A stretch of DNA of 49,190 nucleotides, the filler included, from Sphacelaria rigidula (lineage: Eukaryota), in the NCBI GenBank assembly GCA_964200075.2. It is 3 parts of 3 records of this genome, joined end to end, with 100 filler letters (N's around TTAATTAATTAA, not from the genome) between each part and the next. Parts side by side here need not be neighbours in the genome. Positions count along the whole stretch, not along the records: positions 32,873 to 49,190 come from CAXNAA020001395.1; 2 more parts are not named here. One strand, written 5' to 3'. Of the stretch, positions 1 to 49,190 are shown in pieces (position 1 is the stretch's first letter; each line of letters starts with the position of its first letter). The position numbers and the translations under genes were made by a program. The notes beneath the pieces were generated by a model. That model saw only the letters and a list, made by a program, of their open reading frames with translations, was not told the DNA's origin and did no database searches.

Positions 1-119
1 GGAAAACGTTCTGTAAGATTCTGAACGATAGAGTAGGAACGATGCTAGAAAAGGAAGACAAAATCAGCGAGGCACGATATTTGACGTTATCTACAAGCTT
101 TCTTTTCTCACTGCTCAAC

Positions 120-500
120 GGTTCGCACACTACCAGCAGACGCCTTGGCGCGCTGGGGGCCTCGTCTGCGTGCCATCTCGGACACTGCGCGCCTACAGTA
201 CTACATGCCAGTGTTGTACAAGCACAACTTTGAGCGGCACCACCAATTGATTCGATTTCAGCCGGCTTTCTTCACCTACTCCCACCGCACATGCGACCCT
301 CACCTCTCTGCACACTTCGCAGCTGACTACAATTTGTAGTCCGCTTGATGGGACCTTGTCGAATCGCAGAGCTACGTGGATTGAAAGACGCGCGTTGATC
401 TGCAGATTACCACGATGTGTCATAGTAGGCACAACTCGCGATACTTCGGCACCTGAAACGGGCTGAAGTAAAGTGGGCTTCTTGGGCGACCCAGCTTGTA
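120..500. repeat. Diverged copy of the internal segment 20075-20420, ending in a TIR-like CCCAGCTTG|TA
   Basis: Shared blocks such as CAGACGCCTTGGCGCGCTGGG, ATCGCAG.GCTA, GATTACCACGAT.TGTCAT and GCGATAC.TCG in the same order. Confidence 0.75.
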
Positions 501-1114
501 ATGGGAAAGTTTCAGACGCCCCTTTTTCTTTCTCTTTCTACACCACCGGGAAAATTCATCGCGTGAAATAGATCAATATTGTATAGCAGTCTTCCCCCGT
601 GATGTGTATGAACATGGAGCATTCGAAGAATATTTTTTTGACGGAAAATAATGTCATTCGGTCGTCGTCTGAGACGGCAGAAACAGAATTGCAAGGTAAC
701 CTACAAACGTTGTCGATCTGGTGTTACAGAGTACCGAGGAAAGGGCTGTGTCTGTGTCCGAGCAAAAGTTTTGGGCGAGCATGAGGAGACGATGCAGTTC
801 TAGACGGGAACTGGATCTTTTTCTCCCAGTATGTCCAAAAGTGGGGAATGCCTATTTCGTAGGGAAACGAAATTCAAATCGACTAACGATGAGAAGACAT
901 GGAGGCGGGCTCTTTTCCGTACAGGGCCAAAACCCTATTTTCACATGCAATTTTTTTCTTGTCTGTTTGAATTGTACGTGAGTATGCCGAGACTCACGCT
1001 GTCTGTACACAGTGTGCTTCTGATCCACCCCTATGAAAACACGAGCGATATTTGGTTCTCTTTCCTTTTCTCTTCTTTTTGTTCTCGGGGTGGGGGACTG
1101 GACGGGTCGGGCAG

Positions 1115-4100: not shown

Positions 4101-4828
4101 TGTACTTCTCATGTCGTGGTTCCCACGTCACCCTCCCCCTTTCATGACAGTAGATCTTACGAAATGCACGTGAATGATGGTTGTTGCTTGATTTTTCTTC
4201 ATTTCAGACTGAACAAAGTTCTGAGAAAGTTCATGGTCTGGGGCAGATGAGCAGTGGTGAGCAGTAGACCCAGCTCGTCCAGAACGTGTTTTGGTCCAAG
4301 ATCGGCTGAAAGGCGTCGGTTTGAGCTCTGGCAACGCACACTGTCTAGGGTACACTTGCACGCCCCTTGCGCAAGGGTTCTCGGTATGCCTTGGTCCGGT
4401 TAGGGTTACGGTTGGCGGCATCTCTAGTATCAACCATTATTTACGTGCATTTCCTCAGGTCCCCGCTTTCGTGAAGGTCTTGGAGGTTTTGTAAGAATAA
4501 ATATTTCACGCCGGCCAGCGGTTGCAATTTTGCATTTTAATTCAGATATCTTTTACGTGTGTTGGGACATCGAACCAACTATCGTTGTAGGAGATCTTCC
4601 GTGAGTTTGAACACTGCTTCAGAGAGTATCCACCATTTATTTTGGCCCCCAGCATGTTGGTGGGAGCCGGGATTTGAAGGCGGGACCTTGTAAATGTGAA
4701 GCGTACGAGCTATTTCGTGATATCGCCAGAATGAAAAGGTGATTCCGTGACGGACACTCGTGGGAATATGTCCCTTCTAGATGGTGATTCCCGCATACTT
4801 ACCCATATCCACCGTCGGAAATAACGTG

Positions 4829-4892
<64 letters not shown>

Positions 4893-13800: not shown

Positions 13801-15408
13801 TCTATCGTCCAGGGTGTGGTGGTCAGCACATCCTGGGTAAAAGATTACATTGCACCCGTCGGACAGTTGATGAGCTATCTAATATAGTTGATCGAAGAGG
13901 ACTCCCAGATGCCGTGTCCAAAACGCATACGACACGTGACAGCAGGGTCCGAGAAGTCAAAGCACTACCTTCGCGATACTCCGTGCGCTCGGCGTCCAGC
14001 GCTGTACGGTGTAAATAATATATAAATATTAGATATTAATTAACTAAAGGTTGGATGGTTGGTTGGATTTTATTTTTTGGACAAGAGAAGGATAATATAT
14101 GGAATAAGAGACCAAATAAGCTAGCTCATTTCAGGATCAGTATACTAACAACAAGTAATACTCAGGTAGTTCATGGGCTGTGCGACGTGTGTTACATTGT
14201 CAAGAGAGTACTGCGTATAGTACCGGCTATTGCGCCTAATGCAATAAACTATGGACTCCATACTGCACGCAGTACACTTCTTGACGTGATCTGCTGTCCG
14301 AGGTGGGTTATTGTAGAGCATGTGTATATGTGTATAGTGGAGATATACGAATGAAGGGAAGAAGGCGGTTTGGAAGTTGTAAATAAAAACACGCCTCTAG
14401 CAACGTGAGGGAAACCCCGCAGGATATGTATACGAAGATGTACGTCATTTATGAGGATGGACGAGGATGTGTGCAGTGCGCAGACGGACGTAGGGGTATG
14501 GTTGATCCAGAGTGGTTCAAAACACACGCCACCGGTAAGGCATCGGCCCGAGGACATGCGTGATTCGAACATGTGTATTAGCACATACGTGGGTAAGGTA
14601 TGAAGGACGTGGAGGAAGCTGTTGGTGCCACTGTAGAGTGAAGCGATGGCGCGCGTGGTGGCTACGACGTACATAAGGACGTACATGGAAGATATTGTGA
14701 TGTGGTGCCCATGTTCGCGTAGTGGTCAAGCCTACATTGCGTGTGTCTCTTTTTTTGTATCCACCAGCGGAAAAGTAGGAGTGGAAGTGGTGGTTTAGGT
14801 GTACTGTTTTGGTCTGTTCATCACGTTTGGGCTACCTGGATGTATGAACTTGATACCTGTGATTTGTCTCTCCCCCCCCAGTCATCTTGTTCCGTTCGAA
14901 AGGGATGCGTGGTCAAAGGTCAAACGACCAATGAGGATGCCCCCTTCCCTCCGCCCCCACCCGCGCTCCCTCTTCCCGTGCCCCGTGATATCCTCTCTGT
15001 ATTTCCCCAGGTTGTGTTCTGTAGGGTATATCGACTGATTGACGGTATTCACAGAAGTATGTAACAGGTGTTTGATCGGTGAGTGACCTTCCGGACCATA
15101 CTGCCGTGTTCGATACACATATCGGTATTGTTTATTATAGTATGCTCACCAAAAATCCCGCACTTTCGGGTATACCCCCATATAAACAGAAGACAACCTT
15201 GATGTTTCTTTTGGGTTAGACTCTGTACCTGTCTCTCTGATCTGTCGGTCGCACACTCTTGTCCTGTGCCATCGTCTTTCAGGTTCTGGAAGAGGCAAAG
15301 ACGATCAACAAGTCTCTGTCGGCGTTGGGGCAGGTGATCAATGCCCTCACGGATGAGAAGAAGCCGCACGTGCCTTATCGAGACTCGAAGCTGACGCGAG
15401 TTCTTCAG
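1115..15408 (+). CDS. Kinesin motor domain, kinesin-1 (KHC/KIF5)-like; partial spliced gene (5' exon not identified, 3' part lost at the linker)
   Basis: Eight AG/GT-bounded, phase-consistent exons (765 nt, 255 aa): 1115-1220 ([17 protein letters not shown]), 2373-2416 ([14 protein letters not shown]), 3678-3815 ([17 protein letters not shown]-loop GQTSSGKT), 5024-5086 ([15 protein letters not shown]), 6007-6090 ([12 protein letters not shown]), 12275-12382 (switch I NQGSSRSH), 13539-13634 (switch [10 protein letters not shown]), 15283-15408 ([27 protein letters not shown]). [13 protein letters not shown] is typical of kinesin-1. Confidence 0.95.
3230..3594. mobile_element. MITE with CGAGCTGG termini and internal inverted repeats
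   Basis: CGAGCTGG.. at 3230 and ..CCAGCTCG|TA at 3594. Internal arms TCGATCGAAAAAGTGCGGTGG..AAACAAAAACTCCGATCTGA and TCAGATCGGGAGTTATTTTGTTTTCCACCGCATTTTCTCGATCGA are inverted. Confidence 0.7.
4831..4892 (+). repeat. (ATT)20 microsatellite
   Basis: Perfect trinucleotide run in kinesin intron 3. Confidence 0.98.
5888..5989 (+). repeat. (CTTGTG)17 microsatellite
   Basis: Perfect hexamer run ending 17 nt before the exon starting at 6007. Confidence 0.98.
7633..7771. mobile_element. hAT-like MITE with 8-bp TSD
   Basis: TIR (G)ACACCCTGGACAA / TTGTCCATGGTGTG with a perfect 8-bp direct repeat AACCCTTC at 7625-7632 and 7772-7779. Confidence 0.75.
7883..8107. mobile_element. Two back-to-back piggyBac-like MITEs (7883-7992 and 8001-8107)
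   Basis: CCCTT...AAGGG ends separated by TTAATTAA. The second is flanked by TTAA on both sides. Both carry the TGATGCC(G/A)ATTCA motif. Confidence 0.75.
10649..11842. mobile_element. TIR element containing degenerate ~42-bp tandem repeats
   Basis: TCCACCGTTCGAACGAAT / ATTCGTTCGAACCGTGGA (17/18 inverted), flanked by AAA on both sides. Interior units approximate AATCGT..GTACATGTTT.CCAC...TTCATGCGGGATG at ~10735-10965 and ~11251-11800. Confidence 0.7.
11900..12062. mobile_element. piggyBac-like MITE
   Basis: TTAA|CCCTTTTGAGAGCGG ... CCGGTCTCACAAGGG|TTAA with internal inverted arms GTGAACGGGCATCATTTTC / GAAAATGATGCCCGTTCAC. Confidence 0.8.
13682..13818. mobile_element. Second copy of the CACACCCTGGAC-TIR MITE family
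   Basis: Perfect 12-bp TIR CACACCCTGGAC / GTCCAGGGTGTG with an interior similar to 7633-7771. A third, end-degenerate copy lies at ~14200-14280. Confidence 0.75.
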
Positions 15409-34233: not shown

Positions 34234-36449
34234 CCAAGGGCTCACTTTGTTCAGGGAATGTATATACCGCCCTTGGCGGAGGGTTCTCGGTGTGCGTTAG
34301 GTTGGGTCAACCCAACTAGCCTTCTTGCATTCCAGCGTATCGCAAGCGCGGACGAAAAGCGACGCAGTGGCGTGTAATAGATGAGGAACAACGGAAATGA
34401 CGGTAGGGTTCTGATTTTAGAGTGTACTTGACTTTTTCTCGATATGATTTTGGATCCATGCCGTTCTCTCCCGATGACGTGAGGCACAATTCACCCCACG
34501 AGCCTGGATAAGCCCCAGTAGTCGGTATGTTCTTGTCTGTTCGTGATATTAGCCGGTGACACTTTTCTTTTGCCTTTTTTGAGGGGGTCAGGCACGCCCA
34601 TAATGGTAGTATAGTGAAGTACGCAGCACTTTCAAACAACAGACAAGGCCGCATTGTGAAGATTTCTCAACATACCACCCATAACGGTGGTGCAAGACAA
34701 CATGATCTCTAACGGAATGGCAATGCAGCCAGGTGTGGTACTGCTTGTGCGCTGTAGACCACGAATCGTTCCCATCGTCTTCTTACAGCTGAAGCTGACA
34801 CGAGTGAGGAAGTGAACCCAAGGCAACGTCGTGTACCCGCCGTGCATTAATTTTTTCACGCAACACAACCAAGCGAATGCTGATACCATGTCGGCGTCAG
34901 GAAGGTCTTCTGATCGCGATGCCAAGCTTTTCTACTTCGTGAATAGTCCATTTGATAAGCATGGCAGTTATGATGGATTACCTACTTTGCTCGCTAGGGT
35001 GTATTGATTTTGGACTGGCCGTGACCATGGTGGTGAAGGTGGGCGTGTTTTTTTTTCGTTCCGCTATGACCTCTGAAGAGGAACAACGGTTTGCAGACTG
35101 AAAAGGTGTGAACGGCACTATGACGCTGAAAAAATCGCTCTGAAAAAAAAATCAGAGTGGAATGTGCACCATTACCGGCTATTTTTCCTTCCCCTTTGAC
35201 TCTGAGATACGAAAAAACGTTTTCCAAGACTCTCTATCATCAACAATACCTGGGTATGGAGTATCACCCGGTTATGACCTCAATACTACCCAATTTCAGG
35301 TGAAGTTCGGTATGATTTCAACAACCTACCCAAACTAGTGGTAAGCCGCGGCTGACGCACGTGGTAGCAGTGCCGTAAGTATCAAGTATCCCGCGGCCGA
35401 TCTGGGGTGCGTGGAGGTTTCGAACTACAAAGCGAAGAACAAACAAATGATCCTGGCACTAGCCATAACTTATCGATAATATAAGATAAGAAATTCCAAT
35501 CCCACGGCTAACCGTGACCACTACGAAAGAAGAAAGGAGGACTCATCGTTAGGGATGCTCATGGGCGGGTCGAGGGGGGGGGGGGGGGGGGGGGGCGGTG
35601 TTTGGCCTCCGAAGAATGTCCGGGCTTTCGGGAAACATTTACCGAAGACGACCACTTGTTCGTTTCCTTAGATGCACTTGATTCTAGACTACATCCTTGA
35701 CAGGCGGAAATTTTGCATTAAGGTGACGCCCCCCCTCTTCAGACGCCGCACACACCTACACACCGCCGACACATTTTGGGGTTGGACCGCTTTTCAAGTG
35801 CTTCTCAAGGTTCCCGTCAAAAGCTACATTTTTTTCAGGGTATGCCCATTGTGGGGCATACCCTGAAAAAAAGGAGGCTACATCCGATTGCATTCCAATT
35901 CAAAGCACACTGCGCGAAAGGAGCGCTCGAATCGTATATGTCGCCGAGGATAACTGGGGGGTCAAAGTCGGTCCCTCAGAGGAGTCTCCCGAACAACCCT
36001 CCGTCCTCAACAAAAGCAAGAGGAAAAATAGCACAGAGAGTAGTGGGGAGGAAACGTCGGAGGGGAGGTCTGAGTTGATGGGTGAGTATGGGCCTGTGTG
36101 AACCGAACAAAAATGAGCACGTCGTGATGATGATAATGATTCTGTTTTTTTCGTGATTTATTCATCTTTCGTCCTTCCGATTGGTTGCCCGCCAGCTGTC
36201 AACCAACAATAATGTAGACCCGGTCCAACCGACGCCATTTTCGAACCCACCCGCGCAGAAGAGAGGGGGCACACCATTTTGTACCCACTCGCGCACGAAA
36301 GAGCCGGTAGATAGCGCAGGCCACGGCACGCACACCCACAACACACCTCACACGCGCACATACACAGACCGACTACCACTGGCTAGCGGAAGAAGCCAAG
36401 AGATCATACAACTGAGAACGGCTCAACAAAAAACGCACACGAAAGGAAA

Positions 36450-36588
36450 CCCTTTGGGAACTAGACCCCCAGGGGGTGCTGATTTTTGTTTCCGTGAATC
36501 GGCATCATTGTCAGTCATTTTCAAGTCAAAACAATGCCGATTCACAAAGACCCATAAAACAAAAATCAGCACTTTAGTTCCCAAAGGG
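36450..36588. mobile_element. piggyBac-like MITE
   Basis: Perfect 14-bp TIR CCCTTTGGGAACTA / TAGTTCCCAAAGGG|TTAA with internal GAATCGGCAT / ATGCCGATTC arms. Confidence 0.8.
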
Positions 36589-37580
36589 TTAACCCAAACA
36601 TCTACCTTGTTTGAAGGAAAAGAGATTCAAAACCGCATGACTCTTGCTTTTATATCCATACCGACTACAAGGCCGGAGTGTGTTCACCGTTGTTCCTCTC
36701 CATCATTTAGTTTGCGGGTGGCCGGGAGGGGGTTCGCCTCTACGGTGAACACACAATAACTGTTCTGGCATGATGACCGAAGACGCGGGGATGATTGAAC
36801 AAAATCAAGTATTTGAGTACATGGATATATACACAGTACGTACATGTGTCTTGATTCAAAGACAACAGTGCAACAGTGGTCTCGAACACCCGTACACAGT
36901 ACCTCCCGTGCAGTGCTGTCTCTACCACAGTCTGCACCACACCGTCCACTACTACTGCCTGTATTGGAAACGATGCTGCGCGGTGTATGTTCGCTGCTGT
37001 GCTGTCATCCCATCTACTTTGGACGCCAGTTACACCTTTTCCCGATATATTAAATATGATGAGGGAGCATCAGCCGGGGTCAATCAGGAGGACGGCAAGT
37101 TTTTTTTCTTGTGTGTGTGAGGAATTAACGGTAAGTAATTGACGAAATGAACACTGGAAACAATGAAAATGAAGATAATGATAAACGTGGTATTGATCAC
37201 TTTCAAGAGGCGGACGCGGCCGCGCGCAACACCGCGGGGTGACGGCGGGGTTGGATACTGCACCACCAGCGACAATAAAAGAAAGAGGGCTCCCCGCGTA
37301 GAAATGCTTTGAGGTTTTTGTTCAGCTACGTTCACCACACCTTCATCGTCTTAATTCAATTTCAACTACTATACTGCACGTTCGAAACTCATAGGGTAGG
37401 GAGGTGAATTATCCTCGTTCTCTCTTCTCCGTGTACTACTGTTGTTATCTCTGCGTAGTTCGGGTGATGCAGCGACGACTACGGGTATGAGCGACGAACC
37501 AAACATGGTACGAAAAAAATGGAAAGGAGGCCGATAGATCAGCTGGTAAAGGCGGCGACGGTCCCATGGGTACGGGTCAA

Positions 37581-37665
37581 ATTATATAACGCATACACTA
37601 TTTTCAAGTAATTCAATTTAAATTATTTGCAGTCCCTCTACATTATATAACGCATTATATAACGC
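37581..37665 (+). repeat. Three copies of ATTATATAACGC just inside the left end of the Dada-like element
   Basis: Exact 12-mers at 37581-37592, 37642-37653 and 37654-37665. Confidence 0.85.
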
Positions 37666-37955
37666 AAACTTGATTTTAGTATAGACTCCGTCACACTTGT
37701 GTTTACCGGTCTTCTGGTCCCCGCAGCCACAGTACAGTACCGTGCTGCCCGTGCGGTATCCAGGAGAAAGAACATTGCCGCAGCGCAGTACCTAGGACAA
37801 TGGTCTCCGCACAACTGATGTTTTGTTTATTCTTGTGTGGGATAGTGTACCCAACGTTCGTTTTGAGCGTCGCCGTGCCCGGCGTGGGGTTGTGCTGGCC
37901 CGCGTTGATGTTGCAGAGTCCATTTGGTCTTGGCTTGCTGCTACTTGCTCTACAG

Positions 37956-40900
37956 TGCAGCTTTGGAGACGGTGCCAGCAGGCAAGAAGCACCACCGACA
38001 CCGACTCCAACACCTAGGTTCATACCTGCTACTAACCCCTATGCTCCAGGAGTACCGTCGAGCAGGAAGTCTCCCAATCCCAAAAAGTCTGCGCGCAGTA
38101 ATAAGGGCAGGTCGAAAAGTAGTGCTCCCAAAACTGCTACTGGTAGCACTAGCAAAGGCGGCCGCCCACCTGGGGTGCCCAATGCACCTAGGACCAAAAG
38201 GGCCTGGTGCGAACAAAGATGGAGGTTCACAGCAGAGTTCGTTGCGCAGCTTTTTTTCCAGTGGCAGCGATGATAACGCAGCGGGCGATGGTTCTCGAGC
38301 AATGCGGGCGGATACGGAAGGGCAGGAGGGATCATGTTCTGCTTCAAGCTGCAGAGAGAATCCAGGGCAAGGCGCAAGTGCAGGAGACGGAGCAAATGAC
38401 GGCGGAAAGAGAGAAAAGAGGAATGCCAATGACGGGGGGGAAGCAGGAGGCGGCGAAAGGCGTAAAAGAAGCGGCGGCTACGGTGGCAGCACCGCGGAGC
38501 CTGCAGCGCTCGAACGCAGTAGTGCAAGCAGCGGTACAGGTGCTCCCGGAAATATAGGACCATCGCTACGCCTCTCGCAAGTCCAGTCTGCATGGGTACG
38601 CGAGGTCAAAGCTAAGGTGGACGCAAGCTTTGCGCACGAGCGTGGGGGCGTTGTGAAGAAAGATTCTGGCAGGTTCCCGTATAACGGGGGATGGGCTATT
38701 CCACCGCTGCCTAGTGCGCAACAAGGCTCAGGTAGGACATAAAGGTTCGACACCTGTCCGTTTGCGGAAGCCTAAATATAAACAGTACACGAGTATTTCC
38801 ACAGTAACCACGTTCTTGCCCACTCTGTGCAAGAGTGCGATGTGCGTATGTTATCGTATCACCGATTGGGCACCTTCTAGGTTTTGTTGCTTGCACTTGA
38901 TGCTTTCAAAACGCGCAGAACTTCACCATGTACTGTGTTGAGCTTGCCATCTGTAAAGTATTTTGCAAATGTAAGCGTACAAGTGCTCACCCTCTGTGAC
39001 CTCGCTTCTACTGTTCGCCGTGCTACCTGTCCCCAGGTCCGCCGCCCGTCAACCCCTTTTATCTAAAAAGGGTGTTTTTGTGGATTCCTGAATTCATCTG
39101 GCCCGAGATCAAGCACATACCTTGCCCCACTTGTGGAGGTGCTGGGGCGTCGGACGGTTGGAACCGGCAGCAGCCGAGACGAGTTTTTCTCGAGGATGGC
39201 ATCTGCTATCTCACAGGCTACAGGTACAGCGGAGCGGTACGATAGGCGTGAGGGGTTTCTGCGTTGCTTACTTTTGAAGAGCTTGCTTCTCGTGCGTTGG
39301 TGTGCATCTTCGAGGGATGATGAATGATTCAACTACCGATTTTCTGTGCTCCCGCTGCATCGTTCATATGTTTGATATACCTGTGATACGTGCAAGAAGG
39401 CGAACGGCGACAAAAGACCGACTGATCCCGGGTACAGAAATTGGTCATTTAACGCTTGGGACGACGGGGTGTTGGCTCGCCTGCCTCCTTTCATCGCCAA
39501 CGAATTCCCCTTCATCTTGACAAGGAAAAGTGGCATTTCCAAGGCCGTAGTGGATCGCTTAACGGACGACTTGCTCAATGGAAAGGGTTTTTCGGCGGCA
39601 GCGAGATTTATTGCCCAGTCTCACCACACGACGTACATGGACCGGTACAAGAGCTATATCCACCTTGCCAACTATCGCAAGAACAACATCCACGGGTTCT
39701 TCGAACGACGGGGAGGGGGTGGAAGTGTGCCAAAGTTTGGGGGGTTCGGCGACAGATAGGGCTTCAACTGCGCCGTCCCATCAGATGGATATCTACGAGA
39801 TGTATGGCGTCGGTGGTTCCACGACATTCCCGTCATGCATGTGAGTAATGTTTTTTCCTCGGCGTACGAACGACCGATATCGCGGTAATTTTCGTTGCCC
39901 TGCTGCGACTTGAATTTTCTCCCGCATAGCCAAGGTCCATACGCTGTCGTGCTCACGATTTGATGCCATCTTCTTGCCGCCCAGTCTCAAGTTTCCGTGG
40001 CCGCGCTGTTTCAGGTCGATGGCCGCAGTTGGACCAGAGAGGAATACATCCAACGTAGGGGGCAAATGATGGATGGAGTCATTTTGGCAGGTGACGCCTC
40101 CTTCAAGTATGCCAAAATCATCCGGCTAGTGCCTGGATACGGGTTGCAGCATACGCGACCTATCCACGGAATCTTCACCATCATGAACGAATACGAACAG
40201 GTGACGCTTCCTTTCTCATTGACTTGTGTCGTTTGTGCCAACTTCCAGCCGGTCAGTAGCTGTTGCTCTGCTGTAAACGTCTCGTTTCACACTATGCCGC
40301 TAATATCCAGTTGAACACGGTACACAATTTTTTGTGGTGTCGAACTACACGCTTTTGTGCAGGTTGTGTTTCAGAAGGCGATGAAAACTGCATCTGTACA
40401 TGATCTCAAGAACGACCTCAAAAGCCTCTTCGTCAACCGCTACATAGGACATGGGTTCAAGCTACCGGTCTTGTTTAGCACAGGTGATAAAATGTCAAGG
40501 GGCATTTTGTGTTGCTCGAGTATGTGTTTCTTGCTGCCACTGTCCAGCTTTGGGGGGAAATTGTATTTGATTTTGCTCTTTCGGTGCTGGCAATGTTCGT
40601 TTGACGGCTGTTGACACAACTACGTTTCCCCCGTCCGCTGCACAGACGAGTGTTGTCAGGATCGTCTCATGTTCGTGGCTATGTTCCGGGAGATCGAAAT
40701 TGAGACGGGGGTTCGGTTGTACGAGGCAGAGGAAGAAGACGTGAGCCACGAACGCGCACCTCTGCCCGCGCTAGCACTACCAGATGATCCCGAAAAGATC
40801 CCGGTCGTCGCTTGGGATAAGGACGCCATCAACCATGCGGTGATCCAGCTCCGGCGTGGGTGCGAGAGTCAGGGAAATGTGTTGGGAATGGACTGCGAGT

Positions 40901-43900
40901 GGGAGCCATCGTTTGATGGAAGCCCAGAAACTCCGGTTTGTACAATCCAACTTGCCCTACCAGACGGCGCGACGTTTTTGTTTCACTTGCAACGTGGTGT
41001 AATCAAGACAACCACTGCCAATTTCAACGGCGCCCTCAAAAACCTGCTAGAAGATGCCGGCATCGCAAAGGTGATTATGCAGTATGCGTTCTAACGTGCC
41101 ATCCTTTTCCACCATGGAGCGCCTACGTAAATGGTGGTGACTGTCAACATGAAGATTTATATCCGCTGTTCGACCCTTGTTTTTGCCTCACTTCATTTTA
41201 GTGTATAACATTTGTCAGGTCGGGGTCGCTATCAAGGCCGACGCCACACGCCTGGAAAAACATTACGGCGTCGAAACTGCCAACGTACTGGACCTTCGCT
41301 CGTACGCGCGATCATGCTGGGTGACTGTGCTACCTCGAGGCCTTGCGGGGATGGTGCACGCGGTGTTAAAAAAGACCCTCTCGAAAGAGCCGGCCGTGCG
41401 TTTCTCTGTGTGGAGCGGCCGTCAGCTCAGCACTGCACAGGTGAGATTTGCTTGAGAGCCACCGCGAGGTACCACAAGTGACGCGTACTCGGTGTTTTTG
41501 CTGTTTCTTGAACAATGCTCCTGTCATCACGGATATCCTGCTCTTGCTGCCTCCATTTCCCCCCCTCCGTCGCCGTTGAAGGTGAAATACACCTGCTTAG
41601 ATGCGTATGCCTCCGTGCTTCTCTTTCAAGAGATGGGAAAGTTCAGGGACTCCATCCTGAACCCTGCTCCCAACTGTTTAGAGTCCGGAGTGAAGGTAAG
41701 AAACTTTACTGCGTAATTGTCCATTTTGTGCGAGGTGTAAGGTTCTGTCGGCGCGTTTTGTTCGTGCCCACACTATTGTCTAAGTTTACATCACTGTTCG
41801 TCCTCTCTCTTGAAAAATCATCATCCAATATCCTAGGTGAGACTCTACACCAAGAATCACGCCGAGTGCGTGGGTGTGGGCGAGGTTGTCGTTTCAGATG
41901 ATGCCGACAGGTGGCTTCAGCTGATGCATGGTACGGCAAGTAAACTCCTGACGCTTCGGGGGATACATAAGCAGCAGGTGCGGGTGGTGGTTAGAATCAC
42001 GGAAGCCCTCCGACCAGAAAAGTACACACTGCACAAAGAATATCCTCCGGCGGCAGCGTCGGACTCCGCGCGACCAACCGTGAAGGAAGTGAAGGATGGC
42101 GACGGATTTACCCTGTGGGATGTGGCTCACCTTCGCCTCCTTTCGGACCACAGGCCCTTCACGGGTGCAGCAAACGCATGCGATCCACATGTGTCGAGTG
42201 CTTACACCGACGGTGACTTCTTCGAGCAGCTAATACTACCACCCCGCGTCGTACGTCTAGGTGAAAGTTCATGATGATGTTAACACGATTGTCTGTATCC
42301 CGTCACACACTCCGGCTGCCCATCGCCGCTCTTGACGACCTTTGTTTTGTAACTCTCGCTAGCACGTCTGTTTTCTTGGTTCCACAGGGGATGACAACGA
42401 CGATGATGATTATGATGACGCGGACGACTATGAGACGTGGTCAGACTTCTCTGACAGCCGGGGCAAGCTGGACTGCAGCAACGAAACTGCTGATGCTGTG
42501 GCTAACGAGGTCCGTCTACTCACTCTTGCGACGTGTGTATATATATACACATATTTCTTGCGATCTGAGTTGCGTTTCCGGCCTCTCTTCCTCTGCTCGA
42601 CCTCATTTATCGCGTGCTGTGGTTCTTATTTTGCGACACGGTTGAACAGGCTTATGGAGAGAAGGTGTTTTCAGTGCGCCTCGACCTATTCCATGCGCTG
42701 AATCGCATCTCTCGCGTTATCAAGAAGAAGCATGGCGCGTTCCGGCCGTTCATGGCACGCCTTCGCGATGCCTGTTTTCTCATCAACAAAGAAGACATTG
42801 AACAGGCAAGTACCACTACCTGTATGTATCGTGCGCCGCGCATCCATCCTTCAATAGCTTCCTTCTCTTGATCGTTGATAGAGGTTTGTCTCATCAATTT
42901 TCCAACCGCTCCTCCGACCCAGGTGGAAGAAATGCTGATGAAGCGCGGCTGTAGTGCTGATGAGGTGGCAAAGATGAAAGAAAGGGATTGGTCCTTCTTC
43001 CTCAGGCACTGCCGCCGCCGTGTACCGCCAAGGGATCAGTTACTGGAGCGATTTGACAAAGCTGTTGAACAGTTCGGTTCTGTCGTGGACAGCGACTCCG
43101 GAGAGCCACTACTTCGTCCCATTGGCAAGGCGGCTGTCGATAGGCTGCGCAAGCACATTGTTGCGGGCTGTTTGAGCGATCCAGACGGCGTGGCAATGTA
43201 CTATTCAACGGGCAAGACCCGGGACGGGCTTGCTAGCTTTCGCTGTGTGCGGGGCACCAATGCCACTGAGGTGAGAACGTAGACACACCTTTTTTTCATT
43301 GACGGCGGAGCTGCCAAGCTGTGGTAATGTCTGTGTGTCGGCTCAGTTATTGCTAGCTGCATTTTTGTTACCCCCGTGAGAAATCATCGAAGAACATCCA
43401 CTACTGGATGCATTTTGTTATGTATGCTTGCGTTGGAGATGGTTCCAACAACAGAGACGCCTCTTTCGCGCACTTTTGCCTTTCCGTGTCATGACACCAG
43501 GGCTATCATCGCTATCTGCGGACCTTACTCGCTTCGTGCTGTGCGTCTCCGGCGATTGCGCATTCCATCCTGCTGGAGTTTAATTATCGGTGGAACATGA
43601 GGATGGCAATGGCAAACAGATACCTACCCGAAGAATACGGGGGGCACTTCAACCAGTTCGACATAGAAGTCGTTCAGCGTGTGACTGACCAGTGGTACCC
43701 AGACAGCCCTCTATTTCCAGACTGGCCTGCTGCTATCGATTGTGTAGACACAGGGGAGAGAAGTGGGCTTGCTCGAAGCGTGTGGGGTGGGGGAGGAGAG
43801 GGTTCGGAGGAGGGAATGAACTTAATTCAGGAAGGTTTTATCGGGGAACTCCGCGACATTGGTAGCATTCGTGAGCCGGTGCCGTTCGCAAGGCTCACCC

Positions 43901-44751
43901 ACTCCACCAAGCTCTACGCGAAATTGACAGGCGCTGGTCTGCCGGAGCTCCCGGTGGCCACGCCGGCAGAGAAATGGAAGTTTGATACAGAGCTGCGGCA
44001 TAACTATTTCCAGCACGGAGATCTCATGGGGAGGCAGCAGGTGTATCAACGTCTCAACTTTGATGCTTGGGCTGTGAAATGGAACGAACACTGCTCCAAG
44101 ATTGAAAAAGGCGTGATACCGCACGAGAATATCAACCGCAAGACAGCGAAGCAGCTGGAAACGTACTACGAGGAGTTCAAGACTCGGGTAAATTGCACGC
44201 TGACGATGCAGCCTGTCAAGCAAGGGAACGCCAACCTCAGAGCTCAGCTTCAGATTCCGGCGCCGCCTGAGGATTTTGCGGACTCTGTAAGCCGCGCGCG
44301 GCCTTTGCCTCTTCCTCGCCGTCAGACCTGGCAACAGCAGGGTGGGTCGACCTCACAACGGGAGGGTGAACCGTCTGGGAGCAACCCCGGGATAGTAGTT
44401 GGCGTAGGGGGGACTGCGGAGCCAAAATCTCCTGTGCCAGTTGCGGGAGGAGGTGCCGCCGGTGGTTCGAGTAGTGGAAACGCCAGCACAGCGAAGAACA
44501 CCGCACGGCGGCGAGGGCAGAAAACCTGTCAAGAGTGCGGGCACTTCAGTATGATCGGCATTTACGCCAGGAATCATCACCCCAGGCTCGGCAGCGGTTG
44601 CAGTGTAGACGAAGAAAAAAAGAGACTTGAAAACGAGAGGTTGGGCAGGAAAGATCGCCGCTATAGCGACAAATGCATGTTCCTCCCATGCGATTGTGAT
44701 GACTGCCGGACTGCTTTAGCTGCGTACAATGCGAAATTGAAGGGAGACTGA
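37956..44751 (+). pseudogene. Dada-type DDE transposase with inserted DEDDy 3'-5' exonuclease, spliced, disrupted
   Basis: Exons ~37956-38731, 39037-39223, 39375-39840, 40015-40200, 40363-40483, 40646-41070, 41219-41440, 41582-41695, 41837-42260, 42388-42509, 42650-42805, 42923-43270, 43501-44751, all phase-consistent from 39037 on. Motifs: CPTC..CDTC; D1 in LAGDASFKYAK (40093); D2 in FSTDECCQDR; DLFH (42683); E in RGTNATEGYH (43268); C-terminal CQECGH. Lesions: in-frame TAG at 39757, TG instead of AG acceptor at 39373-74, and a probable frameshift near 38195. The start codon is uncertain. Confidence 0.85.
40800..41640 (+). other. DEDDy (DnaQ/WRN-like) 3'-5' exonuclease domain within the transposase
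   Basis: Exo I VLGMDCEWEP (D 40891, E 40897), then TIQLA, Exo II KVGVAIKAD (D 41240), W..RQLSTAQ and Exo III KYTCLDAY (Y 41588, D 41600), spread over three exons. All catalytic residues are present. Confidence 0.9.
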
Positions 44752-45212
44752 GTGCGTGTTTTGGTCAAAGTATCTATAGCTCTTTCTCCACGGTCATATT
44801 TTCTGGCTAAGAGAATGATGTGTCGCCCTCGACGGCACATTTATGGGTTTCATGTGTAGGATGCTCTGAACGTGTGTAACATGACAACTTACGAGTACAG
44901 TAGTATTAAATATGTAGGATTGGCAGTGTAAATGAGGAGTTTCGGGTTTCATGAGTAGCACAAGAATAAGTACATCAGCTCCAGTATAGTAGCACATGTA
45001 TGTTGGGTTGTGGTCCCTCGCTCTGCGTGTACTCTAAATATTGGTTTTTCTCGTCTGTATTACCCATACATGCGGTATCCAATGCTTCCTGGAGTCGGCA
45101 TCCCATCGGAGGTCGTACATGTTTCTATCAATAATTGATGATGAGGTGATGACTGAGGTATCTATGTTTGACAAATAGTTTACACGGTCATTTCTACACA
45201 CATATATTTATT

Positions 45213-45645
45213 CCGACATCCACAGGCACATGCACTTCGCTTGTCATGCACAAACGCGGTGGTTCCACACGTGCGCACAGCACACGCACACAGCATGGGC
45301 GCCTGGCGCTGGAGAATGGAGCACGACACGGCCTACGCACGTGGATATTGGCCCCCAGGGTTCTCCCGTTTTAGTTTGTAGTTGATCTTGAATGTACTGA
45401 CTCGAGTACTCATGTTTCACGGCTACTTTGCGCCTTCTATTCTATACGCTATATACTTCTAGTGCGCAAATGTTTTTAGTATGCTCTTGTTCCGACATCC
45501 ACAAGGAATATCGCATTTCGCTCACCATGCACAAACGCCGTGGTTTCACACGTGTACGCAACACATGCACACAAGATGAGTGCCTGGGGTCAGGAAAATG
45601 GAGCATGGCACGAGCCATGCGCGTATAATTTGGCCCAGGGCTCTC
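45213..45645 (+). repeat. Diverged ~150-bp direct repeat pair inside the right end of the Dada-like element
   Basis: TTCCGACATCCACA..CATGCACAAACGC.GTGGTT.CACACGTG..AATGGAGCA..GGCCC..AGGG.TCTC occurs at ~45213-45365 and ~45490-45645. Confidence 0.8.
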
Positions 45646-46294
45646 GCGCTTCGCGCGAGAGTTTAATTATTTTATAACGACCCGTACCCATGAGCTCGGT
45701 GCCTGGCAGGTCGATTGAAGCAAATATGAGAAAACGTGGTGAGAGGCGAGCACACGCCACTATAGCGACCGTGTGCTAACTGCGTGAACGAATGGGGTGG
45801 CCTGGCTCTGGAGCCATTTACAGCTCTTTTAGCGGACGATTGATGATAAAATCGTACTTAGGGTGCCACCTTTGAAGTTCAGACCAGCTACTTGTACAGT
45901 CACCGCTTATATTGCACATACTGTACTGTAGTCCTGCTACTACAGTATACTGTTGCACTCCCTGCCCGTTCTCTCGGGGGAACGCTTCAACTCTCCTTCT
46001 ACAGTGTTATTGCCGTAGTACCGTACCACTGATCTGGGCGATCTCTCAAGGGATGACAGCAAGCTTGTTAATTACCCTTCTTGTGCGGTAATTGTGCCTT
46101 GTCGACGCACAATCGCGGTGTAGATTATTGTGACTGGTGCTTCAGAGAGGGCTGACAACCAGAGCTGAGGCGAGCTGCTGGATGTGTTGCATGACAAGTT
46201 TGTTGGAAAAAATATGCCAGAATTTTGACTCGGATCCACCCCAGTCCAAACAGTCAGGCATATCTAGGGAGGGGCCAGGCCTGCGGTCCTTTAA

Positions 46295-46393
46295 CCCTTC
46301 GACCGCGAGAGTAGTCTTTCTGGAATCATGCACACTTTTTTTCACTTGAAATTGATGCCGATTCAACTGAAGACTAACCTCGCGGTCTGAGGG
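46295..46393. mobile_element. piggyBac-like MITE (same family as 8001-8107)
   Basis: TTAA|CCCTTCGACCGCGAG ... CTCGCGGTCTGAGGG|TTAA. Confidence 0.85.
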
Positions 46394-49190
46394 TTAATCC
46401 CACTCCAAAATCAAGATTTCCGCTGTCGACCGTCCAGGGACTTTTATCCTCCACTTACTGACCAACCTTCCTTCGATCATCCCAAAAATGATCAACTCAT
46501 GTACAGTAGATAAACTGTGCAAGCGATGACTGACAACGGAGAAGGTAGTATAAGCGCAGAGGTCTTGCCTTGGATGGAAGGAAAACGATTTTGAGAGCAG
46601 CCTGAACGGAAAGCAGAGCGCGCGACTGACGGCAAAAAAGTTGTAAAAGATGAGGAAGCTGCAACAATAATCGCGCGGTTGGAGTCGGGAATTTCTGACC
46701 CCAACAAACGTGAGTGCGACGGTCCCGCAACTCCGACATCCTGTACGGCCCCTGCCAAACAAGATCTTCTCTTGCTCTCCCGACACCATCTTCTCTTGGC
46801 AGTAACAGAACCTCCTCTATCGCTTCCTAAGGGATTCGATGGTTTCCTCCACATCATTCCGGTGGTGTTTACTCAATACCACTCTCAAGAAAAGAAATCG
46901 TTCGCTCGACGACGGCAAGAAACTTGAACTTACAACCTGACCACAGGAGTAAAAGGTTTTTTCATGGAGCTCAAAGTACGGGCTTCTGTCATCACGTTTG
47001 CGGGTACGATGTCATCGACCGCGTCGGTTTCGCTGATACTTGTGCTTGTGGTGAGATCCGCTGACTGGACCAGATTCCCAGAGTAACGACAGTCAGTAGT
47101 TGCGCCGCCCGCGTGTACAGTACAAGAACTGGTCCGCCAGATTCAACTTACAATCTACATCATCCAACTAATAATACATCACGGCATGCAGTCAACGACA
47201 GTGGTTTGACGTGTCCTTTCCACTTACATGGCAAAATATTCCACAAGTGGGCTGCTTTCCCTGCTTTCCCCTGCTGCAGCAGCCGCTTGGCAACGCGTTG
47301 CAACCGTCGCAGGTCTGGTGTCAGTAACATGTTTCGATCCAAATTTCCACCGACACCGTTTGCACTCTCTGCTCACTGCGCCGATCCCTCCGAATTGAAG
47401 CGCGAGGGTGCCCGGAGCGCTCACCAGAGTGGAAAATAGCGCCCATACCAGTGTTGTCCAGCACACCATGCAAGAGCGGCACCCGAGCGCACTGCTGTCT
47501 GTATTGCTGGTGTCCACTATACTGAGCAAATGCTATACAATTTGCAATCAATAGACTCGAGCATTCTTCGAAATGGAAGTGTGTCATTTGCCAAGCAGCT
47601 GTATTTTTGGTCGTGTTCTATTTTCGGAGGTTCAAATCTTTGGATACATGAATTTTTGGTCGTGTTCTTGTGGATCCACAAGAACAGGGCGAATACTGGA
47701 AAGATTTGTTCATGGGGACGTTTTTTGCTGAAAAGATTCATGTGAACTGTTGTGAACAAAGGGTATGACTCTTGCAGCTAGAGTTGCTAGAGTCATACCC
47801 TTTGGTTGTGAATCCTGAATCATAATAATATGCATGTGTGAGCCAATGCGCTTGACTTTCAGCGTAGTGTGCCCTTGTGATTTTCCCCCGAAGGCCCCAA
47901 TCACGTACTACTCGTGTTATCTATATTATGGCGATCGACTCCAGGGAGGTTGTTGTTTGACGTGTTCGCGGGCATGTAGTGATCGTGGGGCAAAGCAATG
48001 GCACGCAGCTGCTGATGCTTTCATCCAGACCGACCCTCCGGATATACACCACGTAAACAGACGAAATTGAAGCAGAAAGTTGTTAATAGTGTTTTTGCAA
48101 ATAGCACGGCAGTTGATCGTCCAGGAAAGCGAGAAGGCAGCGCCACGAGCAGAGGTGACCATCAGCCGTCATCCTCTATCCCGCGTTTGAGGGCACCACG
48201 TCGCCGAGCGGCGCCCATGGAAAGCGTAGCGTGGATAAATCAGATATTTGTTCTGATTCCATTCATGGTCCGTGTGTATGTGTGCACCGAGGGGATTCTC
48301 CAAGCTAACCCAGCCCCATCCGCATACTCTGGGGAGGTATATCCCACCTGTGCAGGAAGACACCACAAGCTACCGATTGATTTGTACCGAGCCGCGGTGG
48401 GCTGTGAAGATTATATACTAAATATCAAACAGATGCGCCCAAGATCGCAGCCTGCGGTACCCTGGGCTCGTAGTACAGTGCGCCCATCTATGCCGCCGCT
48501 TTCCCAGTGATCGTTGCTATGCTGACTGTTCCGTCATTCGTGAAGAAAGACGTTACACGAGGCTATAGATTGAGAGCGCCTACGCGTCACCACACAGCAC
48601 CAACTATGTGACTCTATTACACATCACCAGGAAACTCACAGAACCAATTTGTTGACGTATTGGTGAAATTTATCGTGTTGGTGTGACGGGCAACACCAGT
48701 ACAGTACAGTACAGTACAGGGAGTAGTACTGTCGGACTGTCCGTCATGAGGCGGCAAAATTGTGTCATGCATGGTGCAGAAGACGCCGGGCCCAGAAATA
48801 AGAAAATTACATCGACTCCAGAAATTAGATTATTTTACGGCTGTGAACTGGCGTCTCTGGTCAGTTTGACCTGGTCGCGCCAGCGGCCAGTTAAAAACTG
48901 ATGTATTTTCCCAGTTAAGCAGCGTCGCCGGTTAAATAAATGGCGACACATCAACGGCGAGCAGTGAAACTGCGAGCCTCAACGCCCCCCCCCCCCGGCT
49001 GGTTGAGCGGCAAGAAAAAAATGCGATACTTAGCTTGTGCGCTCACTTGAAAAATATTTCCCTATCGTGGTGTCTATAAACCTGTCACGAGAAAAGACAA
49101 CGTGAGTCATCACTAGTTGGGGTCCTAGGGCTGAAGCTCTCAGGAGCAGGGCGGCGCGTGTACTGCGCCAAGTTGATAGGGGGTTTTAGT

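Follow-up and report, generated by a model that had tools for sequence, protein, structure and literature searches.

A probable Dada-superfamily transposon with an exonuclease inserted in its transposase in the brown alga Sphacelaria rigidula

Does the gene that couples a transposase core to a WRN-like exonuclease in Sphacelaria rigidula serve the alga itself or a mobile element, and in the latter case, of what kind? We examined it within a window of 49,190 nucleotides, by which we mean the whole stretch of DNA presented here. It is very probable (about 0.85) that positions 37554 (or 37556) to 45703 are a single copy, of about 8.15 kb, of a Dada-superfamily DNA transposon, from a Dada lineage with a 3'-5' exonuclease inserted in the transposase; superfamily and lineage are proposed jointly, and the assignment is made by published description. 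Dada is a known, little-studied kind of mobile element. Since this architecture was published in 2013 for Dada elements of Ectocarpus and Laccaria, the window copy is a further member of that kind, not a new one.

Gene model and protein architecture

The transposase gene lies on the + strand in 13 exons, from 38041 or 38182 to 44751, and splices to 1532 codons from the ATG at 38182 or 1579 from the ATG at 38041. Eleven of its 12 introns are GT..AG in the spliced model. The original prediction of 13 exons, a protein of about 1600 residues and a given order of motifs was borne out, with each motif at its place:

38041..38731, + strand: exon 1; start uncertain (ATG 38041 or 38182), N-terminus poorly conserved, basic or low-complexity
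39037..39223, + strand: exon 2; first CxxC (CPTC, 39123-34); DUF6729 match begins, 18.5 bits
39373..39374, + strand: place of the intron-2 acceptor; TG here, AC in a second copy
39375..39840, + strand: exon 3; second CxxC (CDTC, 39382-93), rest of DUF6729, 25 bits; holds the stop below
39757..39759, + strand: in-frame stop TAG; Q in the closest homologue
39985..40200, + strand: exon 4; first catalytic D (GDASFK, D = 40093-95)
40363..40483, + strand: exon 5; ends within the codon of the second catalytic D
40646..41070, + strand: exon 6; second catalytic D (DECC), then the exonuclease's first half, including ExoI (DCEWE, 40891-905; D 40891-93, E 40897-99)
41219..41440, + strand: exon 7; ExoII (IKAD, D = 41240-42); PF01612, 21.1 bits
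41582..41695, + strand: exon 8; ExoIII Y-x3-D (YTCLD, 41588-602; Y 41588-90, D 41600-02)
41837..42260, + strand: exon 9; conserved extra segment between exonuclease and DxxH
42388..42509, + strand: exon 10; acidic low-complexity linker
42650..42809, + strand: exon 11; beta strand and DxxH (LDLFH, 42680-94; D 42683-85, H 42692-94)
42930..43270, + strand: exon 12; helical insertion domain and catalytic E (GTNATE/GYH, E = 43268-70)
43501..44751, + strand: exon 13; end of the catalytic domain, helical C-terminal region, CCHC cluster 44527-44610, stop 44749-51

The product thus begins with a CCCC zinc-finger/DUF6729 region (C-x2-C-x32-C-x2-C), continues with an RNase H-like D,D,E core and a C-terminal helical part, and ends in a CCHC cluster (C-x2-C-x11-H-x8-C). 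Counted from ATG 38041, the triad is D485, D561 and E1163, the codon of the second D (TDECC) being split by intron 5 (40483 plus 40646-47), and the DxxH signature opens the helical insertion domain of the core. A WRN-like DEDDy exonuclease and, after it, a conserved stretch of some 140 residues are inserted past the helix that follows the second D and ahead of the strand that precedes DxxH; this exon-9 stretch matches no known family, gave no Pfam match in a scan of the window's ORF pieces, and is also present in homologues P0157, P0158 and P0162. Once spliced, the model aligns collinearly with P0020, a full-length homologue from a chytrid (model 218-1565 on 351-1715, 31% over 1439 columns) that carries a C-x2-C matching the CDTC of exon 3, and with P0051 (27% over 1245 columns). 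Among named homologues, the nearest come from brown algae and include two E. siliculosus proteins; named animal Dada were not reached in our word-index and full HMMER searches.

The two Pfam families expected for this protein were both matched. Four of 13 window ORF pieces have matches, each alone below its cut-off: two to DUF6729 (18.5 and 25.0 bits) and two to PF01612 (11.7 and 21.1 bits). Of 18 homologues scanned, 16 carry PF01612 (14 above cut-off), as do 6 of 7 in a further set, and DUF6729 lies above cut-off in P0020 and P0164. Counted on the non-gap rows of a homologue alignment, the first catalytic D is conserved in 15/15, the second in 18/18 and E in 24/24; DxxH in 26/26 (D) and 25/26 (H); and the exonuclease residues in 24/25 each (ExoI D and E), 26/27 (ExoII D) and 23/23 each (ExoIII Y and D). 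Against PDB sequences, the profile of this alignment retrieved the WRN exonuclease (E 8.9e-50) and EXD2 (5e-33), with no transposase among the matches listed. The exonuclease resembles WRN, EXD2 and Nibbler/Mut-7 (DEDDy, PF01612) in both fold and sequence, with all five DEDDy residues and 33% identity to the mouse WRN exonuclease; it differs in sitting inside a transposase catalytic domain, whereas WRN-type domains are helicase-joined or stand-alone.

For the fold we relied on a predicted structure of the closest homologue, P0001 (mean pLDDT 60.3), confident for the exonuclease (84-97) and only moderately so for the DDE core (about 50-85). The model matches the WRN exonuclease with Z 26.0 (rmsd 2.0, 186 residues aligned) and the ISCth4 transposase of the IS256 family (6xg8_A) with Z 10.9 (rmsd 3.6, 212 residues), the only one of the 50 structure matches listed that is neither an exonuclease nor a polymerase proofreading domain. 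The latter match spans the exonuclease insert, model residues 94..766 falling on chain residues 166..390, within the catalytic and insertion domains described for ISCth4 (165-407, with D175, D241, C262xxH265 and E348; PMC7780238); the agreement is one of aligned ranges only. On those ranges the model is consistent with the predicted RNase H-like DDE fold. ISCth4, as described in PMC7780238, shares a DDE core and a helical insertion domain opening with C/DxxH; it differs in being bacterial, 401 residues long, devoid of exonuclease and zinc fingers, and mobile by copy-out/paste-in with 8-bp duplications. The likeness is one of fold, without sequence similarity detected among the profile matches listed.

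Ends, copies and insertion site

The following features delimit the element and its surroundings:

37518..37553, no strand: left flank; part of a repeat whose other copies pass directly into the right flank (element-free site)
37554..37578, + strand: left terminal inverted repeat, 25 nt, imperfect, with a perfect 14-nt core at 37565-78
37581-94, 37642-55 and 37654-67, + strand: subterminal direct repeat of 13-14 nt in three copies (a 12-nt period of 2.2 copies was also called)
45208..45651, + strand: a unit of about 165 nt present twice in diverged form (76-80% alike), period about 280 nt, in the non-coding 3' part
45679..45703, - strand: right terminal inverted repeat, perfect core 45679-92; the element ends at 45703
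45704..45709, no strand: right flank; candidate second copy of the target-site duplication, compared with 37550-55

The terminal pair (37554-78 and 45679-703) has 80% complementarity over 25 nt, and its exact 14-nt core occurs nowhere else in the window. By itself, the 14-nt repeat is only mildly unlikely by chance: 10 of 200 dinucleotide shuffles of 36500-46700 hold some exact inverted repeat of at least 14 nt with arms at least 5 kb apart. However, contigs of public runs break or bridge at 37554/55 and 45703, independently of the repeat search; the predicted 14-bp repeats are real. The left terminus is at 37554, or at 37556 if the duplication is read as 6 bp; this duplication is imperfect, agreeing at 4 of 6 positions as 6 bp and 3 of 4 as 4 bp. 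The subterminal direct repeats may be transposase-binding sites.

Other copies sharing these ends, which the original prediction called for, were found in the public-read contigs. Element-free joints run from 37517 to 45709 (runs X1 and X4), from 37517 to 45708 (X6) and from 37550 to 45705 (X4). Loose contig ends occur at 37554/37555 and, behind 45703, in 7 (X1) and 12 (X4) contigs with diverse continuations. Summed contig depth, which does not equal copy number, is about 4000-4950 over 37300-37881 (about 4000 over its left part, 37300-37590) and about 1850-2900 over 45448-45738; that of the interior, to be read with the same caution, is about 27 (X1) and 14-17 (X4). The element ends belong to a multi-copy family, and many shorter relatives in the same genome have in common about 140-330 bp of the left end and the last 44 bp. 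A second copy, about 8% diverged, is also seen in the contigs, and head-to-tail element junctions carry 6-nt spacers. The element had been proposed to be a site-specific integrase. We found no tRNA or Rfam small-RNA gene at the insertion site, and other copies have varied sequences to their right, which leaves site specificity unsupported.

Comparison with described Dada elements

Kojima and Jurka described Dada elements in 2013 as 4.7-11 kb long, with introns, CCCC and CCHC fingers and a DDE plus DxxH transposase, and reported a DEDDy exonuclease lying after the second D and ahead of DxxH in Dada-1_ES (Ectocarpus siliculosus) and Dada-1/2_LB (Laccaria bicolor) (PMC3706591). The original prediction's account of this work is accurate, and its choice of class is supported, our element matching these exonuclease-bearing members by description in its introns, both fingers and inserted exonuclease. 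Its length falls within the published range, and the host of Dada-1_ES is likewise a brown alga. What the window adds to Dada-1_ES and the Laccaria elements is a set of ends, an element-free site and multi-copy shorter relatives; the copy itself is defective. The names Dada-1, in place of a Dada-tX or Dada-U6, suggest in our own reading that those elements had been given no target.

The fish elements Dada-U6, Dada-U1 and Dada-tL/tA share the DDE and DxxH motifs and both fingers at similar spacing (C389/C394/C429/C432 and C1359/C1362/H1372/C1381 in Dada-U6_DR), as well as short subterminal inverted repeats; Dada-U1 copies arranged head to tail lie one duplication length apart, the counterpart of our 6-nt spacers (PMC3706591). 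However, fish Dada as described there have no exonuclease and no repeat at the very termini, their subterminal repeats being 7-9 nt, whereas the repeat here reaches the termini, its 25 nt including a perfect core of 14. Insertions of the fish elements are confined to U6, U1 or tRNA genes and create 6-7-bp duplications, and every Dada with defined ends in that source sits at a small-RNA gene, in contrast to the present site, where none was found and the duplication is ambiguous.

State of the gene and competing readings

The window copy cannot make the full protein, and its transposase gene is dead, because of a TAG at codon 374/421 (39757-59, +, exon 3) and the loss of the intron-2 acceptor, intron 2 (39224-39374) ending in TG instead of AG. 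'Near-complete', the earlier description, therefore stands for the DNA but not for the gene, with its at least two disabling defects. The TAG, the TG end and the uncertain exon-1 start had not been mentioned before. Transcription of the locus, with at least partial splicing, is seen in contigs of public runs, among which X7 contigs match exon 1 at 100% over 38221-38696.

Could the copy nevertheless be intact and autonomous, the TAG and odd acceptor being assembly errors or tolerated? The catalytic motifs are all intact in the spliced model despite the defects, and intron 12 (43271-43500, GT..AG) is spliced out in one X6 contig. Yet the TAG recurs in the X6 contig that spans 39424-39870 with 0 differences and stems from another study than the DNA-like public runs; this contig reads through the exon-3 donor at 39841, another (39250-39451) reads through intron 2, and the second copy, with AC at 39373-39374 (39373 T>A, 39374 G>C), has no AG there either, which makes intactness most improbable. 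The same stop and lost acceptor weigh against a host gene, in which a domesticated transposase and its WRN-like exonuclease would act in DNA repair, immobile, with an inverted repeat due to chance. Homologues annotated 'conserved unknown protein' or 'similar to Werner syndrome protein', an interior at 1-2 copies in the reads, the shuffling result and the domesticated Dada genes of cyprinid fish (PMC8869645) would suit such a gene; we still judge it very unlikely, given that element-free sites and loose ends coincide exactly with the ends of the repeat, that a multi-copy family has these ends in common and that a second copy, diverged by about 8%, exists.

The likeness to Dada could also be convergent architecture in another C/DxxH superfamily (Mutator-like/IS256-like, hAT, P, Kolobok) or an unnamed sister, which seems improbable to us, if less so than a host gene. 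This likeness is drawn from published descriptions; the sole transposase among the 50 structure matches listed is of the IS256 family, which is MULE-related (PMC7780238), and near-terminal repeats without a small-RNA target are unlike fish Dada. However, no MULE, hAT, THAP or other transposase Pfam was matched on the window pieces (E up to 1), in 18 homologues (E up to 0.01) or in 7 more (E up to 0.1). Target-site duplications measure 9-10 bp in MULEs and 8 bp in hAT elements, neither of which suits the 4-6 bp read here. DUF6729, the exonuclease between the second D and DxxH, and the CCCC and CCHC fingers agree with the Ectocarpus Dada report (PMC3706591).

For a Dada element of this lineage, family knowledge suggests that the finger and helical domains would bind the subterminal and 25-nt terminal repeats, and that the DDE site would cleave the ends and link the 3'-OH groups to a target cut with a stagger, which would create a short duplication. 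The exonuclease may act by trimming 3' ends or flaps, whether at the ends of the transposon or at the gap, a role already proposed in 2013 (PMC3706591). The window copy is a good specimen of an exonuclease-bearing Dada with newly defined ends; what it adds is a dead yet transcribed copy, near-terminal inverted repeats, a site without a small-RNA gene and 6-nt spacers between head-to-tail elements.

Gene model and motif order

The element at 37554 (or 37556) to 45703, whose gene lies on the plus strand, was originally predicted to be a Dada-type transposon with a DEDDy exonuclease between the second catalytic D (D2) and the DxxH motif of its transposase. Motifs, fold and family matches all uphold this class, and the Dada classification is well supported, the match being on protein architecture as described for Dada. 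Between 37.9 and 44.75 kb the plus strand carries a row of open pieces in changing frames, the fragmentary ORF picture of the original prediction. We built a gene model using as guide P0001, the closest homologue (a partial protein of 835 amino acids from the brown alga Hapterophycus canaliculatus, 58% identical over the exonuclease exon), together with other homologues and GT..AG sites. The spliced model has 13 exons and 1579 codons (from the ATG at 38041) or 1532 codons (from the ATG at 38182).

Exons of the gene model
38041 or 38182 to 38731, plus strand, exon 1 (start unsure)
39037-39223, plus strand, exon 2
39375-39840, plus strand, exon 3
39985-40200, plus strand, exon 4
40363-40483, plus strand, exon 5
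40646-41070, plus strand, exon 6
41219-41440, plus strand, exon 7
41582-41695, plus strand, exon 8
41837-42260, plus strand, exon 9 (conserved segment after the exonuclease)
42388-42509, plus strand, exon 10
42650-42809, plus strand, exon 11
42930-43270, plus strand, exon 12
43501-44751, plus strand, exon 13

Several full-length relatives are collinear with the model: the chytrid protein P0020 (1722 amino acids; model residues 218-1565 against 351-1715, 31% identity over 1439 columns), P0051 (27% over 1245 columns), and likewise P0158 and P0162. In the spliced model all the motifs stand where they had been predicted, including the D at 40093-95 and the E at 43268-70, and all five DEDDy residues fall between D2 and DxxH.

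Motifs of the spliced model
39123-34 and 39382-93, plus strand, CPTC and CDTC of the N-terminal CCCC motif
40093-95, plus strand, catalytic D (D1)
40483/40646-47, plus strand, catalytic D (D2), codon split by an intron
40891-93 and 40897-99, plus strand, exonuclease ExoI D and E
41240-42, plus strand, exonuclease ExoII D
41588-90 and 41600-02, plus strand, exonuclease ExoIII Y and D (Y-x3-D)
42683-94, plus strand, DxxH signature motif
43268-70, plus strand, catalytic E
44527-44610, plus strand, C-x2-C..H..C of the C-terminal CCHC motif

In a 27-row alignment of the family, counting non-gap rows, conservation is complete for D1 (15/15), D2 (18/18), E (24/24), the D of DxxH (26/26) and the ExoIII Y and D (23/23 each), and nearly so for the H of DxxH (25/26), the ExoI D and E (24/25 each) and the ExoII D (26/27). 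The CCCC arrangement of Dada is present in the sequence, both CxxC pairs recurring in P0020; together with the CCHC motif it forms the putative zinc fingers expected of a Dada protein.

The copy itself is dead. An in-frame TAG at 39757-59 occupies codon 421 (374 from the second ATG), where P0001 has Q in a well-aligned block, and the acceptor position of intron 2 (39373-74) reads TG instead of AG; we placed the end of this intron just before 39375 because the second CxxC pair is conserved and present in P0020 too. The other 11 introns have GT..AG borders. The reads also contain a second copy, about 8% diverged, which spans 37749-39688, the 5' third of the gene, with several 1-nt indels relative to this copy (23-24 differences in the 282 nt of 39407-39688, for example) and AC at the intron-2 acceptor position; over 40500-45400 no such copy was seen in read contigs at 90% likeness. 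A PCNA-box-like (PIP-box-like) Q-x2-L-x2-F-F in exon 1 (38233-38256) was discarded: it occurs near the N-terminus in none of the 12 homologues of at least 1300 amino acids, the homologue P0059 having one unrelated match at residue 1238, and it is probably due to chance or limited to this lineage.

Signs of transcription come from two sequencing runs, X6 and X7, which are RNA by guess, no run with the sequence and recorded as RNA having been found. One X6 contig joins 43270 directly to 43501 across GT..AG borders, precisely intron 12 of the model, and supports the guess. Exons 1, 2, 3, 6 and 13 find 100% identical contigs in X6 and X7, and other contigs continue without splicing through intron 2, over the TAG and beyond the exon-3 donor. 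A further X6 contig (depth 2.7) skips 38349-39120; the skipped stretch is bordered by CT..AC, equivalent to GT..AG on the minus strand, and is not in frame with the plus-strand gene. This skip (38348-39121) may come from antisense RNA spliced over exons 1-2, or from a variant with a deletion.

Family matches and predicted fold

The Pfam families anticipated for this protein are matched, although each window piece singly falls below threshold: DUF6729 on 39000-39245 (18.5 bits) and 39376-39759 (25.0 bits; cut-off 27), and the exonuclease family PF01612 on 40615-41094 (11.7 bits) and 41153-41455 (21.1 bits; cut-off 23.6). The other nine of the 13 pieces scanned gave three unrelated weak matches (E 0.02-0.13) and six blanks. 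Among homologues, PF01612 scores 56.9 bits in P0001 and is found in 16 of 18 proteins scanned (in 14 above the cut-off), only two short C-terminal fragments lacking it; six of seven further homologues also have it. DUF6729 exceeds its cut-off in P0020 (31.0 bits) and in another homologue, P0164 (56.2 bits).

An HMMER search with exon 13 returned 190 proteins at E<=0.001, 81 at E<=1e-10 and 19 at E<=1e-30. Named relatives come from brown algae (Ectocarpus species including E. siliculosus, Pylaiella, Laminaria digitata, Sphacelaria and Hapterophycus) and from chytrid fungi (Blyttiomyces, Siphonaria, Phlyctochytrium and a Chytridiales species), the closest including two E. siliculosus proteins. 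Cluster look-ups for 20 proteins gave only brown-alga and chytrid names. These relatives show the exonuclease-bearing lineage to be widespread among both groups. Word-index searches did not reach animal Dada, returning only stramenopile, Logan and EukProt proteins. An Atlas search gave scores of 0.89, 0.84 and 0.75, all below 0.9 and hence leads only; the lowest-scoring lead is a chordate cluster, 19% of whose members have DUF6729.

The AlphaFold model of P0001 has a mean pLDDT of 60.3 and a pTM of 0.45, with 84-97 in the exonuclease and about 50-85 in the DDE core. Foldseek against the PDB retrieved exonucleases only (WRN, E 2.9e-14, TM 0.83), and in a wide structural search the WRN exonuclease reached Z 26.0. 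The predicted domain is a DnaQ-fold DEDDy 3'-5' exonuclease of PF01612, WRN-exo-like. The transposase core, absent from the Foldseek list, was found by the wide search: ISCth4, an IS256-family transposase (6xg8_A), stands at rank 37 (Z 10.9, rmsd 3.6, 212 residues aligned, model 94..766 to chain 166..390) and is the only entry among the 50 matches listed that is neither an exonuclease nor a polymerase domain. In the excerpts of PMC7780238, its catalytic and insertion domains span 165-407, with D175, D241, C262xxH265 and E348; this range corresponds to D97, D176, D572xxH575 and E725 of P0001, the agreement being one of aligned ranges, not of a residue-by-residue superposition. The RNase H-like DDE fold that the original prediction called for is thus matched, at the level of the model and by aligned range, to the DDE/CxxH core of ISCth4. 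The exonuclease and the exon-9 segment therefore lie inserted within the RNase H-like domain, between the post-D2 helix and the strand leading into DxxH.

ISCth4 appears to be the nearest structural relative, sharing the core fold while the sequence families do not match. No MULE or IS256 Pfam family was found in the window pieces, the 18 homologues or the seven further ones, and a PDB sequence (profile) search returned no transposases; what MULE and IS256 proteins share with this protein would be the fold only. The exon 13 model has a mean pLDDT of 74.3, and its best structural match (Z 5.9; TEAD, Myb/SANT and homeodomain-like three-helix domains, residues 124-255) lies below noise level and was set aside.

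Elsewhere in the window, Pfam detected no other transposon genes among 59 other long ORFs. Their sole match was a sub-threshold kinesin motor domain (PF00225, E 9.6e-5, 21.9 bits, cut-off 29.3) on the piece at 13404-14015, which probably belongs to a host kinesin gene as one of its exons. At 35574-35595 there are 22 consecutive G.

Ends, copies and insertion site

The 14-nt inverted repeat predicted to flank the gene is present and exact (37565-78 and 45679-92), with no third occurrence in the window. It is the core of a 25-nt pair, 80% complementary (37554-78 and 45679-703), and starts 11 nt in from each terminus; the 11 positions outside it match at 6/11, first three bases included. An inverted repeat of this kind is held by 10 of 200 shuffles, and by itself is only mildly unlikely.

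Other copies of the ends or flanks are lacking inside the window, and public reads supplied them. Nine runs from three studies contain the stretch or part of it, four of them with half its sampled words or more, and we aligned to the window the Logan contigs of four runs, X6 and X7 and the DNA-like X1 and X4. Summed depth, which is contig depth and not copy number, is about 27-60 (X1) and 14-44 (X4) over the interior (37882-45447), where long X1 contigs show 0 differences, and rises up to about 4000-4950 over 37300-37881 and 1850-2900 over 45448-45738. Because the aligned contigs number 415 (X1) and 443 (X4), mostly at 90-99% identity, the element ends belong to a multi-copy family.

Contigs have loose ends before 37554/37555 and behind 45703 (7 in X1 and 12 in X4, agreement 0.4-0.5, hence varied right flanks). 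Element-free contigs, skipping the whole element, link 37517 to 45709 through 38 diverged letters equivalent to 37518-37554 (depth 54 in X1 and 30 in X4), 37517 to 45708 (X6) and 37550 to 45705 (X4). Two further contigs run head-to-tail, from the right end ...GCC (45703) across a 6-nt spacer to the left end GGC... (37554). These three kinds of contig therefore set the termini at 37554 (or 37556) and 45703. Many contigs arrive at 45659/60 from another interior (25 in X1), and others part from the left-end sequence past 37600 or 37696; hence there are shorter relatives that have in common about 140-330 bp at the start and the final 44 bp. As to a target-site duplication, 37550-55 and 45704-09 are alike at 4/6, and with the symmetric termini 37554 and 45703 a 4-nt match (3/4) is the only one adjoining both ends.

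Joints from 37679 to 37843 and from 37704 to 37845 reveal other copies without about 140-163 nt at 37680-37844, either an insertion in the left end of this copy or a deletion in the others. The non-coding 3' part contains two units of about 165 nt, 76-80% alike (45208-45371 and 45487-45651, period about 280 nt), at single-copy depth in the reads, unlike the last 44 bp. A metagenome scan for 16 nt of the terminal repeat hit 115 loci; none resembles the ends or flanks beyond those 16 nt, and they were dismissed as chance.

No small-RNA gene (snRNA or tRNA) is recognisable at the insertion site. Rfam gave 0 matches at gathering score over the whole window and three, all irrelevant, at E<=10 over 36500-46700; ARAGORN found no tRNA in the window, nor in the sequence made by joining the two flanks. 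In the left flank, a weak pair resembling an A box and a B box was picked out by eye and rejected as evidence. Does the missing target speak against membership of Dada? Its absence says more about habit than about superfamily, since small-RNA insertion is stated, in the excerpts of the 2013 paper by Kojima and Jurka (PMC3706591), for Dada families with definable ends only. The left flank (37300-37553) is itself multi-copy in the reads, with a summed depth of about 4000, much as the element's left end, against only about 190 for the right flank (45739-46000), and the right flanks of other copies differ. This left-flank repeat has no Rfam or ARAGORN match; that it is a brown-alga RNA gene so far undescribed, serving as target, is an unlikely reading.

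Relation to Dada and possible mobility

As far as the excerpts of PMC3706591 go, Dada proteins combine a DDE transposase with DxxH, CCCC and CCHC fingers and introns, and the elements have a 6-7-bp duplication, 7-9-nt subterminal inverted repeats, no terminal repeats, and U6, U1 or tRNA genes as targets. Every protein feature of that description is shared here. In contrast, the repeat is longer and reaches the ends, the site is without a recognisable small-RNA gene, and the duplication is ambiguous (4/6 or 3/4). The same excerpts state, as the original prediction had said, that in Laccaria and Ectocarpus Dada a DEDDy exonuclease lies between the second D and DxxH, and that it 'likely' processes cleaved 3' ends; our protein has this domain in the same place as Dada-1_ES and Dada-1/2_LB, with all catalytic residues. 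They also report tandem Dada copies with one duplication between them. The excerpts of a 2022 fish paper (PMC8869645) make no mention of exonucleases. In the literature on the Dada transposase exonuclease or on DUF6729 we found no biochemical study, in agreement with the original description of the class as biochemically uncharacterised, and the 2013 paper is the sole one there to treat the exonuclease. The element is a defective further copy of a known class, about which it changes nothing.

By analogy with the copy-out/paste-in IS256 elements and ISCth4, exonuclease-bearing Dada might move via joined ends. The head-to-tail contigs would then be junctions of circles or tandem dimers, and the built-in exonuclease would resect the flanking strand, forming or resolving such junctions. 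We regard this proposal as unlikely, with about one chance in ten.

To our knowledge, no DNA-transposon superfamily other than Dada has been reported to target multicopy small-RNA genes. A transposase with a proofreading-type exonuclease inside its catalytic domain is unusual, and could reveal how the processing of ends is linked to strand transfer. The copy is dead. The value of the locus lies in what it adds for the exonuclease-bearing lineage: concrete, defined termini, a site free of the element, short relatives that form a family, and junctions in head-to-tail order.
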